A stretch of 58,445 bases of DNA from a virus, in UHGV virus genome UHGV-0021275; one strand, 5' to 3'. The stretch's first letter is position 1, and each line of letters begins with the position of its first letter. Shown here one piece after another: positions 5,975 to 54,660 of this stretch. The position numbers and the translations under genes are program-made. The notes under the pieces are model-generated. The model worked only from the letters and a program-made list of their open reading frames with translations. It was not told the DNA's origin and made no database searches.

Positions 5975-6310
5975 ATGCATACTAGTGCCTCTCCCGGCAA
6001 TGCGGTCGCCAGCGTCGGTCTTGCTGCAATGCTACCGGGAATCGACCTGTGGACGCTACTATGCGCCTGTGCCGGGGCGCTACTGTTCGTGCTAAGCGCG
6101 AAAGAAACGGTCCTGTGGGAACGCATTATCTACCTGCCAGTCGGCACACTCGGTGGATATATTGCAGCTACAGAAATAAAAGCGCACTTCGACATGGTGT
6201 CACTTCCGCTGGCTGCATTCTTTGGCGGATTGCTGGTCATCACTTTCGGACTGCGCATTGTGCAGTTCGTTCAAAGTGGCGACCTGCATTCATGGATTCG
6301 TCGGAGATAA
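5975..6310 (+). CDS. Putative holin (three predicted transmembrane helices)
   Basis: 111 aa, AAGGAG RBS before ATG 5975. Three hydrophobic stretches and a charged C-terminus (WIRRR). Immediately upstream of the endolysin. Confidence 0.6.
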   Translation: MHTSASPGNAVASVGLAAMLPGIDLWTLLCACAGALLFVLSAKETVLWERIIYLPVGTLGGYIAATEIKAHFDMVSLPLAAFFGGLLVITFGLRIVQFVQSGDLHSWIRRR

Positions 6311-6314
6311 TATT

Positions 6315-6620
6315 ATGGACTACATCACCGCTACCATAACCTCTGCCGTAAACATGTCCGCGCTGTTGTGCATGCTGTTCTACTCGCGTCACGGCGCGAG
6401 TTTTAAACGTCACATCAGTCTTCTGGCCTGGCTGTTAATGGTTGCCGCGACATTCAATTTATTCCGCACCTGGACCGCTATTGGCCTCTCCTGTCCCGTG
6501 ACATATTCAGAAGCGGTCTGGCAGCTACTGCTGTTCATTCCGATCATTCTCAACAAAGGTAACGTAAGTTTCCTCATTCCAAAGGAGGGATTCCATGAAA
6601 ACATCCGCAGCAGGGCGTGA
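6315..6620 (+). CDS. Small membrane protein, putative second holin/antiholin
   Basis: 101 aa, hydrophobic helices. Start ATG lies inside the motif GAGATAATATTATGG, 4 nt after the upstream stop. 3' end overlaps the endolysin start. Confidence 0.5.
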   Translation: MDYITATITSAVNMSALLCMLFYSRHGASFKRHISLLAWLLMVAATFNLFRTWTAIGLSCPVTYSEAVWQLLLFIPIILNKGNVSFLIPKEGFHENIRSRA

Positions 6621-7104
6621 ACTCATTAAACGAGAAGAAGGCGTACGCTTCACTCTCTATGATGATGCAACCGGGAAATCTATCAAACGTGCCGTTAATG
6701 CACGGGGGAACCCGACAATTGGCGTAGGCCACCTGGTATCCCGCAATGACACATCCTATGATGGCGTTACACTGTCACAGGAACGTGTCGACCAGCTACT
6801 GGAAGCGGACCTGGCTGACGCAGAACGTGCCATCAATAATAACGTCCACGTGAAGCTGTCACAGAACCAGTTCGACGCACTGGTATCCTTGGTCTTTAAC
6901 GTAGGCCCCGGCGTTAAGAACGTGAAAAGCGGCATTATCACTCTGAAAGACGGTAGACCATCGACGTTACTTCGCCTGCTTAACCGCCACGACTACAAAG
7001 GCGCTGCCGAGCAGATCCTGGCGTGGAAGTATGTAAAAGGCGAGCCGATTCTACGCCCACGCCGTCTGCGTGAGAAAAAGCTATTTGAGACTCCCGATGC
7101 GTAA
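6595..7104 (+). CDS. Endolysin, T4-type lysozyme (GH24 muramidase)
   Basis: 169 aa. N-terminus ELIKREEGVRFTLYDDATGKSIKRAVNARGNPTIGVGHL matches the catalytic Glu ... Asp ... Thr pattern of T4 lysozyme-like enzymes. AGGAGG RBS. Confidence 0.85.
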   Translation: MKTSAAGRELIKREEGVRFTLYDDATGKSIKRAVNARGNPTIGVGHLVSRNDTSYDGVTLSQERVDQLLEADLADAERAINNNVHVKLSQNQFDALVSLVFNVGPGVKNVKSGIITLKDGRPSTLLRLLNRHDYKGAAEQILAWKYVKGEPILRPRRLREKKLFETPDA

Positions 7105-7594
7105 TTTTATCGACAGTATCATATTCCTCATTGTTGGACTGATTGCCGGGTTCCTGGCAGGACAGGCATATGAACAACGGCAAAACGACAAAGCGGCCAG
7201 CGATGCAATGCTGCAGTCTATGAATAATGCAGCAGAAAACATCTCTGTGCTAACAGCGTCGATTGATACACAACGTGAACGTGAGAGTAATTATGCAAAA
7301 GACATTCAGTCGGACACGACTCGTACTGACGAGCTGCTTAATCGTGTTATGCAGCATTTCGACCGCGTGCACGAGTCCGCGTTACCTGCCAGTGAAAACC
7401 ACGAAGCCGCCGCTCCCGCCGATACCTGCGTATCTGAAAGAGCCAAAGCACGTAGACTTTCTGGACAATTACGAAACACACTTGAACAGTATGGGAGTGA
7501 AGCCCGTCGGGCAGACGAAAACACCAGACTCCTGAATGAGTGTATCAATCAGCTTGTGACAGACAGGAACGTGTGGAATCAATACCACTTTTAA
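7097..7594 (+). CDS. i-spanin (Rz-like)
   Basis: N-terminal transmembrane helix (IIFLIVGLIAGFLAG) followed by a charged coiled-coil-like periplasmic region. Follows the endolysin. Start taken at ATG 7097 inside track ORF 7070-7594. Confidence 0.65.
   Translation: MRNFIDSIIFLIVGLIAGFLAGQAYEQRQNDKAASDAMLQSMNNAAENISVLTASIDTQRERESNYAKDIQSDTTRTDELLNRVMQHFDRVHESALPASENHEAAAPADTCVSERAKARRLSGQLRNTLEQYGSEARRADENTRLLNECINQLVTDRNVWNQYHF
7293..7535 (+). CDS. o-spanin (Rz1-like lipoprotein) embedded in the i-spanin gene in another frame
   Basis: Internal Met of track ORF 7263-7535 gives MQKTFSRTRLVLTSCLIVLCSISTAC, a signal peptide with lipobox-like TAC, then a Pro-rich segment (KPPLPPIPAYL). Entirely inside the i-spanin gene. 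Confidence 0.6.
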   Translation: MQKTFSRTRLVLTSCLIVLCSISTACTSPRYLPVKTTKPPLPPIPAYLKEPKHVDFLDNYETHLNSMGVKPVGQTKTPDS

Positions 7595-52404: not shown

Positions 52405-52860
52405 ATGATGGCGAGTTGTAAGATTATGCAGTTTCCGCGAACAGAGGCGGATGTTCATAAGTTTTTTACTGAGGAACTGGGTCCGCTGTTGGTGCGCCAC
52501 TGGGATGAGGAAACAGCGCGTACCGGGCAACCACATGGCCTGGATGTACCCGCATTTATGGCAGCATGGGAACAACGTGGTGTTATGGTAATCATGGCGT
52601 TCGATGGCGATACACCTGTCGGTTTCATGCTCGTTTACGTCTTCCGCCCGTTATTCCTGAACAGCACGGTTATGCAGGTTGAACGCTGGTATGCAGCACA
52701 GGATGGCGTCGATAAGGATATGTTTGACTACCTGACAGCGATTGTTCCTGCAATGGGGGTTAGTCAGATCCACGCGATTGCTTGTGATGCACGGCCAGTG
52801 CCGGAAGATGTACCGACGGATGCGGCTGACAGTTATCAACTGGTAAGACTGGCGGTGTGA
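52405..52860 (+). CDS. Hypothetical protein
   Basis: Internal ATG (MMASCKIMQF...) of track ORF 52315-52860. Confidence 0.45.
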   Translation: MMASCKIMQFPRTEADVHKFFTEELGPLLVRHWDEETARTGQPHGLDVPAFMAAWEQRGVMVIMAFDGDTPVGFMLVYVFRPLFLNSTVMQVERWYAAQDGVDKDMFDYLTAIVPAMGVSQIHAIACDARPVPEDVPTDAADSYQLVRLAV

Positions 52861-52861
52861 T

Positions 52862-53695
52862 ATGGCCGACGATGAACTGGAGTTGTATGACGATGCCGGT
52901 GGTGATATCGGTGGTGACGCTACCGGCGATGATATGGCAGATGCAGAGACAGCTGAGCCGGGCAAAGGCGTAACCGATGACGGGCTTACATGGTCCGCGC
53001 GAGTCGCGCAGATTGCAGCTATTGCCGTTGCTGTGATTAATACGAAAGCTGCTCTTGATATTGCCAGTAAACAGGAAAAGCTGGCGAAGAAGTATCTGCA
53101 AATGGCGAAGGAACGCCAGCAGTACTATTACGACGTTTATGTTCCTTGTGAAAACACCGAAGTGCAGGAAGCCTGTAATCTTGAGCCGTGTGAGATGCAC
53201 AAGGATGTACAGGCCGGGCGTGCGAAGGCGTCAGTGCGGCATGAATTTACGGGTCGTACGGAGCGCGAATTGCAGTGTATCAGTCGGTATTGTACCGGGA
53301 AAAAAGCGGCAATTATTCGTGACCGGGAACTGGAAGAAGCTACGGCGTTAGCGTTGTCTGCGAACCTTGCTCGTAGATATGAGGAAGCCTATAAAGACAC
53401 CTGTGACGATGTGCGGTGGTCGCGACGTGCGAATGCACTTAGTCGTGGTCGTGACATTATGGCACAGGCGCAGACATTCAGCGGTTTCGCTATGGGTATG
53501 TTCGGGCGTCTCGGAGAGCAGGCTGGACGTGGCGCGGCAGGGGCAATGGCATATTTAGGCTATTCAATGGAACGCCGGGATATGCCGCAACGTGAACCTG
53601 TGCAACGGCCACAAAGACTTGGCCAGTCGTTCCCACTGCCGTCACCGGAACTGGAAGTGCTACCGCAACCGAAGCCGGTTAGAGTACTTGGTTAA
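52862..53695 (+). CDS. Hypothetical structural protein, paralog of 53710-54660
   Basis: 277 aa. Shares blocks with the next gene: A.IAAIAVAVINTKAALDIASKQEKLAKKY vs LAAVAVATFNTLAMIRIAEKQLDIANEY, and DDVRWSRRANALSRGRD vs DDVRWNRRSQALNRGRD. Confidence 0.55.
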   Translation: MADDELELYDDAGGDIGGDATGDDMADAETAEPGKGVTDDGLTWSARVAQIAAIAVAVINTKAALDIASKQEKLAKKYLQMAKERQQYYYDVYVPCENTEVQEACNLEPCEMHKDVQAGRAKASVRHEFTGRTERELQCISRYCTGKKAAIIRDRELEEATALALSANLARRYEEAYKDTCDDVRWSRRANALSRGRDIMAQAQTFSGFAMGMFGRLGEQAGRGAAGAMAYLGYSMERRDMPQREPVQRPQRLGQSFPLPSPELEVLPQPKPVRVLG

Positions 53696-53709
53696 GGAGG
53701 CATAATATT

Positions 53710-54660
53710 ATGGCTGCATGTGCGATGGCCCAGGGTAACTGGAATACCGGGACGGTAAAGTCTACTGAGGTAAAAACAGAGTCCATTGAGAAGATTGAAA
53801 ACTTCCTGGGTATGACGAAGAAGAATGGGAAGGAAGATGGCTTCTGGCCGGAACCGCAGGTTACGGACGTCGGTGTAAAGAGTAATGCGAAGTGGGCACG
53901 TCTTGCGGCAGTAGCCGTCGCTACGTTCAATACGCTAGCGATGATTCGTATTGCAGAAAAGCAGCTGGATATCGCGAATGAGTATTACAAATTATCTCGC
54001 AGGAACTGGGATCGCTTTCGTGAAATCTTTGAACCGTGCGAGCGGAAAGAAATAGCAGAAGCATGCAGCGCACCGTTGTATCAGGAGAAGTATGACCAGC
54101 AAGCTGCGGATTATATGAACGAGGTCGACCGCACATTCGGTGTCGCGGAAGACCGTATTATGGACCTGTATAAACGTTATGGTATTTGTCACGACCCATC
54201 ATTAAGCCGTGATATTGCTTTGGCCCGTTCACAGGTCGCCGGGGATTCCGGTAACTTTGCGTATCGTTATGAAGAGTTCCGTAAGATTGCGCGTGATGAC
54301 GTCCGCTGGAATCGCCGTTCGCAGGCGCTTAACCGTGGGCGTGACCTGCCATCTGACGCTGTGAAGTATGCAAAAGCGGCCGCTGACGCGTTTAATGAGC
54401 AGGGGAATATGTTGGGGTCTGCTGCACAGGGCGCGATGAATGCGTTGGGGTATTTCTCGGCAAGAAGTGAGACTACGTATCCACAGGCACCACGTCGGGC
54501 ACAGAGTCCGTACCTTGTTGGTCAGGCACCGAATGGCGTGTACGGATGGATCGGTAATAATCCAATGCCTGTCGGAGCAGATGTATCTGGTGCGCAGTAT
54601 ACGGCACAGAATTTCATCGGAAGCAGTATTGGAGCACAAAATCCAGGAACGGGGGTGTGA
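53710..54660 (+). CDS. Hypothetical structural protein, paralog of 52862-53695
   Basis: 316 aa; start inside AAGGAGGCATAATATTATGG; see the paralog. Confidence 0.55.
   Translation: MAACAMAQGNWNTGTVKSTEVKTESIEKIENFLGMTKKNGKEDGFWPEPQVTDVGVKSNAKWARLAAVAVATFNTLAMIRIAEKQLDIANEYYKLSRRNWDRFREIFEPCERKEIAEACSAPLYQEKYDQQAADYMNEVDRTFGVAEDRIMDLYKRYGICHDPSLSRDIALARSQVAGDSGNFAYRYEEFRKIARDDVRWNRRSQALNRGRDLPSDAVKYAKAAADAFNEQGNMLGSAAQGAMNALGYFSARSETTYPQAPRRAQSPYLVGQAPNGVYGWIGNNPMPVGADVSGAQYTAQNFIGSSIGAQNPGTGV

Follow-up and report, generated by a model that had tools for sequence, protein, structure and literature searches.

Dispersed palindromes, proposed as operators, in the genome of an uncharacterised Escherichia coli phage-plasmid family

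The virus genome UHGV-0021275, a stretch of 58,445 nucleotides that was analysed over its full length and is called the window below, carries a short palindrome of ideal form CCATAAT|ATTATGG, the invariant core of which recurs at 26 sites lying mostly outside gene interiors. The enrichment of this palindrome is genuine, robust and conserved across the clade to which the window belongs. The sites are tentatively read here as dispersed operators for a dimeric phage DNA-binding protein that would silence, or punctuate, a plasmid prophage. The phenomenon can be described as punctuation by sites of an operator-like or stoperator-like kind, in E. coli phage-plasmids that form an uncharacterised family; we infer that a protein binds the site, which protein this may be and that transcription is repressed as a result. 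The relative most often referred to is the E. coli STEC648 plasmid record CP061838.1 (pSTEC648_2; L044/L045), a circular molecule of 60,552 bp whose large terminase subunit (TerL) is 85% identical to that of the window. Other relatives are designated by handles such as L030 or L042.

Enrichment and symmetry of the palindrome

Motif counts were compared with dinucleotide shuffles of the window, and the copies located within genes with 300 synonymous-codon shuffles in which amino acids and codon usage are kept fixed. The first-pass annotation, made from the sequence of the window, had reported at least 15 copies of ATAAT(A/G)TTAT. That number was recovered exactly, the 25 strand-hits of ATAATRTTAT corresponding to 15 distinct sites where 0.21 are expected. 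The invariant core TAAYRTTA is present at 26 sites against 3.58 +/- 1.71 expected, and the count therefore exceeds the shuffled expectation under the strict as well as the core definition. When up to two mismatches are allowed, the 12-mer ATAATATTATGG produces 47 strand-hits against 4.4 and the 14-mer CCATAATATTATGG 16 sites against 0.16, and enrichment across the various definitions ranges from 7- to 100-fold. The 14-mer had been proposed earlier as the genome-wide element. This holds for its near copies but not for the exact sequence, which is absent from the window, where CCATAATATTATGG is an idealised consensus only. An exact scan of IMG/VR for GGAGCATAATATTATGG returned 29 unrelated single matches, attributable to chance, a literature search on the 10-mer string retrieved unrelated papers only, and no RNA family of Rfam was found at the motif sites.

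The main signal is the bias of the sites towards DNA that does not belong to gene interiors. Genes occupy about 93% of the genome, and 17 of the 26 core sites (~65%) are found in the remaining ~7% of non-coding or junction DNA. Copies within genes show a modest excess, with 9 sites against 3.87 +/- 1.66 (~2.3-fold), a value matched by one of the 300 synonymous-codon shuffles. Start codons are contained in 9 of the core sites and in 7 of the 15 strict ones, so that the earlier statement that the motif nearly always marks a gene start was an exaggeration. The other core sites comprise six in long intergenic regions, two which overlap a stop codon only or lie 5' of a Shine-Dalgarno sequence, and the nine in-gene copies.

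Each half-site can be written (C)(C)-R-T-A-A-Y. Over the 10-mer, T2, A3, A4, T7, T8 and A9 are invariant, with R at position 1, Y at 5, R at 6 and Y at 10, and the degenerate consensus RTAAYRTTAY that follows from this pattern is itself palindromic. The core is a perfect palindrome in 10 of the 15 strict sites. The central positions of the 26 sites read TAATATTA in 15 cases, have one half changed in 10 and read TAACGTTA in one, close to the 15/9.5/1.5 predicted for independent half-sites: the two halves vary independently. Conservation does not extend to any column 5' of the motif, which leaves it without a -35-like partner, and scans for sigma-70 promoters and terminators revealed neither an excess nor a consistent partner element.

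The flanks were examined on 84 core sites pooled from seven sequence sets. GG is found only downstream, on the sense strand, at 39 sites and CC only upstream at 5, while both flanks are present at 8 and neither at 27. Outside ribosome-binding contexts the bias is about 13:5 (hand count on the same list). The asymmetry is perhaps imposed in part by context, since CC on the upstream side would conflict with the purine richness of the Shine-Dalgarno region. Pooling with the relatives restores CC..GG at both flanks, and the exact CCATAATATTATGG exists in L042 at 9983.

Placement and conservation of the sites

The individual sites of the window are the following, with their counterparts in relatives where these were located.

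1199-1210, plus strand: ATAACATTATGG within the giant gene, read as ITLW; lost in pSTEC648_2, which has TAACATTG, and for this reason probably weakly selected or neutral
3225-3236, plus: ATAATATTATGG within the giant gene, in frame as DNIMA; pSTEC648_2 lacks an alignable orthologous region
6307-6318, plus: junction; TAA is the stop of 5975-6310 and ATG the start of the holin-like gene 6315-6620, first of the lysis cassette; core kept, the orthologue lying at the annotated holin start (CP061838.1, 38956)
8398-8409, minus: intergenic GTAATGTTATGG, the copy nearer the promoter in a tandem pair ahead of the higBA operon
8441-8454, unstranded: intergenic near-perfect 14-mer CCATAACATTATGG, extending to AACC...GGTT, 43 bp from the 8398 site and upstream of higBA
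11232-11245, unstranded: within the primase-helicase gene, core TAATATTA; a relative keeps the core with flipped flanks (GTAATATTATGT vs ATAATATTACGC)
16621-16632, minus: junction; the 160-aa gene 16142-16624 starts at the ATG, after GGGAGC; kept in L037, L038 and pSTEC648_2, with the same junction in L042 (12832) and, in another register, in L046 (12989)
17362-17373, minus: junction; ATG is the start of the PD-(D/E)XK exonuclease gene 16661-17365
23034-23045, minus: junction; TAA is the stop of 23042-23518 and ATG the start of a 58-codon open reading frame (ORF); kept in L037 and pSTEC648_2, where a different gene follows, and lost in L038
26596-26609, minus: junction; the gene 26604-26882 ends with the TAA, and the Shine-Dalgarno sequence GGAGG and an ATG at 26588 come after the motif
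27191-27202, minus: junction; the 99-aa gene 26895-27194 starts at the ATG, after GGGAGC
30843-30856, unstranded: at the stop codon of the YdcK-repeat gene 30851-31699 (minus strand); GG flank on the plus strand, hence antisense-oriented; kept in L030
35478-35489, plus: intergenic, between the divergent genes 34861-35442 (minus) and 35580-36725 (plus); abuts a second palindrome at 35493-35505
35680-35691, plus: variant ATAACATTATTG within the 381-aa gene
37385-37396, plus: intergenic GTAATGTTATGA, first of three upstream of the packaging/late operon, after a terminator-like hairpin; orthologue in L030 and pSTEC648_2
37444-37455, plus: intergenic GTAATGTTATGG, 59 bp downstream of the 37385 site; counterpart at L030 7484, with the CC/GG flank on the opposite side
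37687-37698, plus: intergenic ATAATATTATGG, 95 nt upstream of 37782-38327, the gene preceding TerL (small terminase subunit, TerS, by position only); positional counterpart at L030 9360, and L036 1669 is likewise intergenic upstream of the TerL-preceding gene
38050-38063, unstranded: CCATAACATTACGG within the TerL-preceding gene, with the rare codons ATA, TTA and CGG; identical in L034 at 9721 (a 57% relative), absent from L030 and pSTEC648_2
39390-39401, plus: within TerL, in frame as NNIMA; not conserved in L030 or pSTEC648_2
42196-42207, plus: junction; the 165-aa head-module gene 42204-42701 starts at the ATG; a relative has GTAATGTTATGG at the orthologous annotated start
46255-46266, unstranded: AATAATATTACG (NNIT) within a 315-aa gene; identical in L030 and pSTEC648_2, with flanks 87% identical
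47327-47338, plus: junction; ATG is the start of the 71-aa gene 47335-47550, after GGAGC; a 3-nt deletion destroys the motif in a relative, in which Shine-Dalgarno and ATG persist
53702-53713, plus: junction; ATG is the start of the 316-aa gene 53710-54660, after AGGAGGC; the orthologous pSTEC648_2 start is devoid of the motif
56498-56509, plus: junction; TAA is the stop of 55815-56501 and ATG the start of the 2300-aa polyvalent virion protein; kept at the annotated pSTEC648_2 start (47283)
57867-57880, unstranded: CCATAATATTAAGG within the giant gene

All the start codons indicated earlier (plus strand: 6315, 42204, 47335, 53710, 56506; minus strand: 16624, 17365, 27194) lie inside the motif and are preceded by a Shine-Dalgarno sequence; the start at 23037 (minus) can be added to them. 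Their general form is GGAG-(c)-ATAATATT-ATG-G. Five orthologous starts fall inside the motif in the annotation of CP061838.1 by the Prokaryotic Genome Annotation Pipeline (PGAP), the source of the annotated starts cited in the list, which is independent of the gene calls made in the window. The TAA of the motif does serve as stop codon for the genes ending at 26604 and 30851, as had been noticed, and also at 6310, 56501 and 23042. In-frame copies were likewise found where they had been announced, in TerL (ESNNIMA) and in the giant gene (ANDNIMA, with the variant HNIK at 57870).

Six copies (8401, 8444, 35479, 37386, 37445 and 37688) are positioned 35-160 nt upstream of operons. They include two tandem pairs, spaced by 43 bp ahead of higBA and by 59 bp ahead of the late operon, and the 640-nt region upstream of the packaging/late operon contains three copies with counterparts in a relative. 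The higBA, 35.4 kb divergent and late-operon regions are expected locations for promoters and operators. Other copies are found 5' of a Shine-Dalgarno sequence, at 26599 in the window, at 2249, 2710 and 7963 in L040 and at 12989 in L046. Among the start-codon sites, those of the first lysis-cassette gene and of the giant ejection-protein gene are both kept in the relative. A recurring context, GGG(G)ATAACAAC-ATGG or GGGGATAAnnn-ATG, resembles the left half of the motif and was observed at the 14412, 27863 and 28456 starts and at 37620-37636; the copy at 37620 belongs to the non-coding leader of the late operon and is conserved in L030.

A second palindrome, YGCGYA-N-TRCGCR (TGCGCA-N-TGCGCA), was encountered at 19 places against 0.18 expected. 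Eight copies are grouped in the 34209-37088 regulatory cluster, where the one at 35493 abuts the TAATATTA motif, and the others are at 5000, 16195, 27557, 29806, 40523, 44287, 44361, 45234, 50424, 54842 and 58253. As pSTEC648_2 has 20 copies and the distant relatives none, it looks like a lineage-specific operator, of the immunity type, or a hairpin.

A search for the motif in related phages had been suggested, and the core proved to be enriched in five further lineages. There are 18 core sites in pSTEC648_2 and 14 sites in 22 kb of L042 (61% DNA polymerase identity); L034 (57% TerL identity), L046 (53% identity, 57% GC) and L036/L040 (46-48% identity) are enriched as well. The enrichment thus reaches down to 46% TerL identity, over a range of 48-57% GC. 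No enrichment of the core is seen in L047 (39% DNA polymerase identity), from which ParB is absent. The GC-poor L035/L041 display, at five places, the doubly substituted perfect palindrome ATAACGTTAT or close variants in place of ATAATATTAT, four of them in regulatory intergenic regions and one in a gene nearby.

Conservation is accompanied by turnover. Between the window and pSTEC648_2 the core is kept at 11-12 of 17 alignable sites, with a flank identity of about 77%, and changes in the retained sites fall at degenerate positions. This relative lacks the sites at 39391, 38053, 47328 and 53703 and has others that are private to it. Start-codon sites keep their invariant bases in 7 of 9 cases, against 40% at ordinary start contexts (p=0.025). 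The ATG of the gene after the exonuclease is covered by the motif in the window, pSTEC648_2 and L042; in L046 the motif at this junction covers the exonuclease stop, 5' of the Shine-Dalgarno sequence. L040 repeatedly shows the arrangement ATAATATTAC-GGGGG-TATAnn-ATG (ATAATATTAC-GGGGG-N6-ATG). Elsewhere the core is kept and the flanks have swapped strands, as at 11235 compared with L037 19271 and in the pair 37385/37444 compared with L030 7440/7484. The turnover, the shift in register and the flipped flanks point to a site that would be read as double-stranded DNA and tied to gene boundaries rather than to the initiation codon.

Candidate binding proteins and alternative explanations

Two proteins encoded in the replication region may be considered as binders of the motif, on the basis of their co-occurrence with it.

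20206-21141, minus strand: candidate ParB/Spo0J/Noc-type protein, with a ParB_N domain (GEHR box) and a ParB helix-turn-helix (HTH) domain (Pfam PF17762, PF02195)
22128-22508, minus strand: candidate 126-aa HTH protein, in which the N terminus forms a long helix and the C terminus a three-helix HTH

The ParB-like protein matches Spo0J (3e-16) and Noc (1e-11) among PDB sequences, and KorB marginally (E=0.11). Its HTH block is the best-conserved part, with the invariant pattern I-A-x3-G-x3-G-x-V-x-N-H-L-L-L, and its GERR box is degenerate (GEHR in the window, GHHR in L040). The gene encoding the ~125-aa coiled-coil HTH protein is located directly upstream of parB in distant relatives and separated from it by two genes in the window. 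An AlphaFold2 (AF2) model of the 126-aa protein has a pLDDT of 82, and its HTH superposes on those of CENP-B and of transposases to about 1 A over ~40 residues; Foldseek gave no significant global match for this HTH model. Among the motif-bearing lineages whose replication region was examined, both proteins are present in the window, L037/pSTEC648_2, L038, L040, L042 and L046, and in either protein the HTH block is conserved. ParB and the motif are both missing from L047.

A number of other candidates were set aside. The 183-aa protein 32844-33395 has a weak match resembling sigma region 4, and was dropped as it belongs to no family and has almost no homologues in searches of the PDB and of 1.8 billion proteins. 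A parallel with ParB-dependent thymine dioxygenases was abandoned as well, since the ParB proteins of those systems lack a DNA-binding domain (PMC13229309) and no dioxygenase is found here. Host sites of the Fur, Fis and H-NS types were likewise rejected, as they differ in spacing or flanks and leave the conserved GG/CC unexplained.

A target for a phage DNA-binding protein was one of the options put forward in the first-pass annotation, and it appears to be the best supported one in view of the symmetry, the clade conservation with turnover, the flexible register and the co-occurrence of HTH proteins. In this tentative scheme, the two-fold symmetric site would be bound by a dimer encoded by the clade, either the ParB/KorB-like protein or the coiled-coil HTH protein, or both jointly. 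Some 26 copies would punctuate the genome in promoter-type intergenic regions and at internal junctions, and the bound protein would block or silence the transcription of lytic genes, by silencing or as a roadblock, during life as a plasmid prophage. Overlap with start and stop codons would be a matter of packing economy, free DNA being limited to the spacer between Shine-Dalgarno and ATG or to the gap between stop codon and Shine-Dalgarno. As the motif holds both TAA and ATG on both strands, in a genome that is 93% coding, these triplets may have been co-opted as codons. A more specific version is distinctly doubtful: a ParB/KorB-like clamp and its small coiled-coil HTH partner would be loaded at ~26 parS-like palindromes within start and stop codons and would silence the genome junction by junction.

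Several observations weigh against the operator interpretation. The excess of sense-strand GG (39 vs 5, and ~13:5 outside initiation contexts) raises the possibility that the site is functionally asymmetric or acts at the RNA level. Density is about 8 per kb in short initiation junctions compared with about 2.5 per kb in long non-coding regions, with no copy in the 1 kb of origin-like DNA; such a contrast is not predicted by a pure model of free space and hints at a role tied to gene starts. The better retention of start-codon sites amounts to no more than a modest extra purifying selection over ordinary spacers (p=0.025), and the in-gene copies scarcely exceed background and are frequently lost in relatives. 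The second palindrome has more of the appearance of a classical immunity operator, so that the role of the TAATATTA motif could be other than repression. Concerning the binder, no ParA, CbiA or AAA_31 was found among the 25 Pfam families listed, out of 30, for the 80 window proteins, nor in the gene tables of the relatives, and the link with ParB is confounded with phylogeny because the co-occurrence involves a handful of related lineages.

The density of the short junctions and the sense-strand GG bias are also what keeps alive an explanation at the RNA level, which nevertheless appears unlikely. The mRNA sequence AUAAUAUUAUGG would be a translational operator bound by a phage RNA-binding regulator, or merely an efficient unstructured spacer (U at -1 and -2, G at +4), and in either form it would set the rate of translation or re-initiation of selected genes. 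T4 RegA works in this manner, through AU-rich stretches that cover the AUG of many early mRNAs, and its consensus from systematic evolution of ligands by exponential enrichment (SELEX), AAAAUUGUUAUGUAA, has UGUUAUG in common with the GTAATGTTATG variant. The ATG of the motif is a start codon in fixed register after GGAG at 9 sites of the window and 26 of the 84 pooled sites, a start codon follows 3-37 nt downstream at another 12 of the 84, and look-alike spacers such as GGGATAACAAC-ATGG exist at other starts. The earlier suggestion of a translation-initiation or re-initiation cassette is borne out to this extent by the geometry of the nine start sites (GGAG-c-ATAATATT-ATG-G); it leaves the distal, symmetric, antisense and in-gene copies, and those 5' of a Shine-Dalgarno sequence, without explanation. 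Two-fold symmetry and independent half-sites make no sense on a single RNA strand, and copies lie 35-160 nt upstream of starts without a Shine-Dalgarno sequence, some in tandem. Antisense and flipped orthologous copies are equally unexpected, and the loss of the motif at 47335 and 53710 in a relative spares Shine-Dalgarno and ATG. Generic AU-rich enhancement does not require an exact sequence of 12 nt, and no RegA-like or other RNA-binding regulator is present among the Pfam/PHROGs matches listed.

At the DNA level, three other functions were considered for the motif. It is distinctly improbable that it acts as a single-element promoter, with a -10-like TAAYRT read by the host RNA polymerase and an undetected phage sigma factor or co-activator (cf. 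phiEco32 gp36, T4 gp55), or by an unrecognised polymerase starting at the A of ATG and producing leaderless mRNAs. The missing -35-type column, the invariant bases at T-12, A-11 and T-7, the best conserved of the -10 positions, next to variable bases at -9 and -8, and the resemblance to the gp36 element all fit such a promoter. The structural module has SU10/Kuravirus-type adaptor and portal domains, and copies are found at plausible leader distances ahead of higBA, of the 381-aa gene and of the late operon and also mark module starts (lysis, giant gene). No sigma factor or RNA polymerase was detected by Pfam, by PHROGs (~80 proteins), by weak-hit scans or by phmmer with phiEco32 gp36, and the giant protein belongs to the polyvalent LPD38/YkuD type. 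Were transcription to begin 6-8 bp downstream, the distance found in phiEco32 (PMC8948821), the transcripts of 9 genes would lose their ATG, and phiEco32 promoters are situated 30-40 nt upstream of start codons without overlap. The leaderless variant, which had been raised earlier, does not fit host sigma-70 in its geometry: a -10 element should end 6-7 nt before the ATG, and the conserved bases of the motif abut it. A pure centromere or condensation array, in which parS-type sites would load ParB for partition or DNA organisation with no role in expression, is very unlikely. It would account for the Spo0J/Noc-type ParB with its HTH, the palindromes of 14-16 bp, the co-occurrence of ParB and motif over lineages and the plasmid maintenance, but ParA-type ATPases were not detected, the GERR box is degenerate, and 26 dispersed sites instead of a parB-proximal cluster are atypical of plasmid centromeres. 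Preference for gene starts and the sense-strand flank bias would not be expected of parS either. Finally, there is very little to be said for recombination linkers, that is, junction sequences aiding the exchange of gene cassettes among related phages. Copies do flank variable cargo (545-aa vs 381-aa cassettes; different genes after the DUF551 junction), but 10-14 bp are too short for efficient homologous exchange, many copies separate conserved core genes, and selection on individuals would not keep such linkers identical across lineages of 46% protein identity.

The phage-plasmid family and comparison with known systems

The ORF of the giant protein (2300 aa) starting at 56506 runs to 58445, resumes in frame at position 2 and stops at 4963; the window is for this reason a complete circular, or circularly permuted, genome. 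Genes are organised in three blocks: plus from 56506 to ~7600, minus over ~7690-33800 and plus over ~35580-56500. The ~80 proteins of the window were annotated using PHROGs and Pfam. The replication set includes a DUF927 primase-helicase, an SNF2-type helicase, a family A DNA polymerase and a PD-(D/E)XK exonuclease, and the virion set includes TerL, portal, SU10-type adaptor and internal virion proteins, in addition to a lysis cassette. The giant protein is polyvalent, with LPD38 and L,D-transpeptidase (YkuD) domains, and is not a virion RNA polymerase according to Pfam. ArdA, HigBA and the ParB-type protein were also identified, and no integrase was detected among these ~80 proteins. There are no tRNAs in the window.

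TerL is about 33% identical at most to that of GenBank phages. Megablast searches of GenBank phages and of complete E. coli genomes with 8-20 kb of the window as query found no match, IMG/VR scans with TerL and ParB as queries found no relatives, and a scan of JGI metagenomes with ParB found a single marginal locus. The TerL and DNA polymerase clusters of CP061838.1 (P0002, P0122) cover many E. coli isolate assemblies, always on contigs of 60-62 kb, and one cluster member alone is present on 76 contigs. Given this contig size and the circular plasmid relative, the clade behaves as a plasmid prophage. It constitutes an undescribed, widespread family of podovirus-like phage-plasmids of ~55-62 kb, in which neither integrase nor ParA was detected. 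Its nearest relatives include contigs from Shiga-toxigenic E. coli, yet nearly all of their genes are annotated as hypothetical.

At least six copies of the iteron-like repeat TTGAGCA/TTGAGCAC, followed by a pure A+T stretch of ~70 bp, were observed at 33680-34030, within the ~1-kb non-coding gap dividing the minus and plus gene blocks. This region is likely to be the replication origin and would fit the plasmid-prophage lifestyle; the TAATATTA motif is absent from it. The end of the minus block encodes a HigB-like toxin together with a HigA antitoxin (7690-8341, minus), and an ArdA anti-restriction gene is present at 31871-32617; relatives carry ParE-like toxins. By their annotation, HigBA and ArdA are plasmid-style maintenance and establishment genes inside a phage genome. 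The stretch 7595-7680 (minus) matches the Rfam family AgrB (RF02891; 48.1 bits for a gathering score of 40), an antisense RNA belonging to the type I toxin system dinQ, and overlaps a strong bidirectional terminator that separates the lysis genes from higA.

Variable cargo is found between motif copies. The divergent 193-aa and 381-aa genes of the window (34861-36725) are replaced in L030 by one 545-aa gene, shifted to 7532-9169. None of the three has a Pfam or PHROG match, and they may be accessory or defence genes. At 19597-20406 of CP061838.1, a polymer-forming cytoskeletal (bactofilin-like) protein is annotated after the DUF551 junction motif, where the window has a 58-codon ORF only. The regulatory region of the GC-poor L035 contains IS1595-family transposase genes (3670-5482).

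The interest of the motif extends beyond this window. Should the clamp version be correct, the same 12-14 bases would be at once DNA operator, stop codon, ribosome-binding spacer and start codon. A motif that punctuates the whole genome gives a direct experimental handle on the silencing of lytic genes in plasmid prophages. Should it act on RNA or as a promoter instead, it would represent a new phage-specific expression signal. The annotation of start codons can also be aided by it.

The motif can be compared with four known systems. T4 gp55 recognises the promoter element TATAAATA. The phiEco32 gp36 element is tAATGTAtA, with a start site 6-8 bp downstream (PMC8948821). The motif shares with both an AT-rich element of 8-9 bp without -35, and with the latter the string TAATGT; it differs in its palindromic core, in the start-codon overlap of nine copies, which would put the start site inside the gene, and in that no sigma gene was found. 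Like the operators of T4 RegA, it places an AU-rich sequence across the AUG of a subset of genes (9 sites here), but RegA sites are non-palindromic and confined to initiation regions, whereas many copies lie elsewhere here, and no RegA homologue is among the Pfam/PHROGs matches listed.

A closer architecture is offered by plasmid RK2, in which KorB, a ParB-family HTH protein acting at OB, is accompanied by a small HTH partner and a second operator family (KorA-OA). Some 12 copies of the 13-bp OB palindrome are distributed over this replicon of ~60 kb, some close to promoters, others farther away or within genes. The window similarly encodes a ParB-family HTH protein and has palindromic sites of 13-16 bp (CCATAAT|ATTATGG) together with a second family, the 19 copies of TGCGCA-N-TGCGCA. 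The differences are the marginal KorB match (E=0.11) of a protein nearer to Spo0J/Noc, the overlap of the sites with start and stop codons and the lack of any IncC/ParA found; membership of the KorB family is unproven in view of the missing ParA.

The Cluster A mycobacteriophages, which are temperate, present the other close parallel. Their repressor binds 20-30 sites, some at promoters and most in short intergenic gaps, oriented with transcription, in genomes made up of a few long operons; certain members persist outside the chromosome as prophages that carry parABS (PMC9283540, PMC6550527). As with these stoperators (L5 gp71, Bxb1 gp69, TipsytheTRex repressor), of which there are 20-30 copies of 13-14 bp in a genome of ~50 kb, the motif has 26 core copies in the window and 18 in the relative, and 17 of the 26 lie outside gene interiors, six upstream of operons and eleven at junctions. 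Stoperator orientation follows transcription; the GG bias observed here (39 vs 5 pooled, ~13:5 by hand) could be caused by Shine-Dalgarno and coding constraints. No gp71-like repressor is among the Pfam/PHROGs matches listed, the host is Gram-negative and the phage a podovirus-like phage-plasmid, and the motif is conserved across lineages instead of diversifying with immunity groups. A stoperator is an asymmetric site for a monomeric repressor that has two DNA-binding domains, in contrast to the palindromic core and independent half-sites of the motif, which is consequently placed outside the stoperator family as defined by an asymmetric site and a monomeric repressor. If the link with the ParB and HTH proteins were true, the biology of the ParB fold and the stoperator concept would both be extended to enterobacterial phages, and if the clamp version in particular held, the motif would be a Gram-negative, symmetric counterpart of the stoperator built on the ParB fold.

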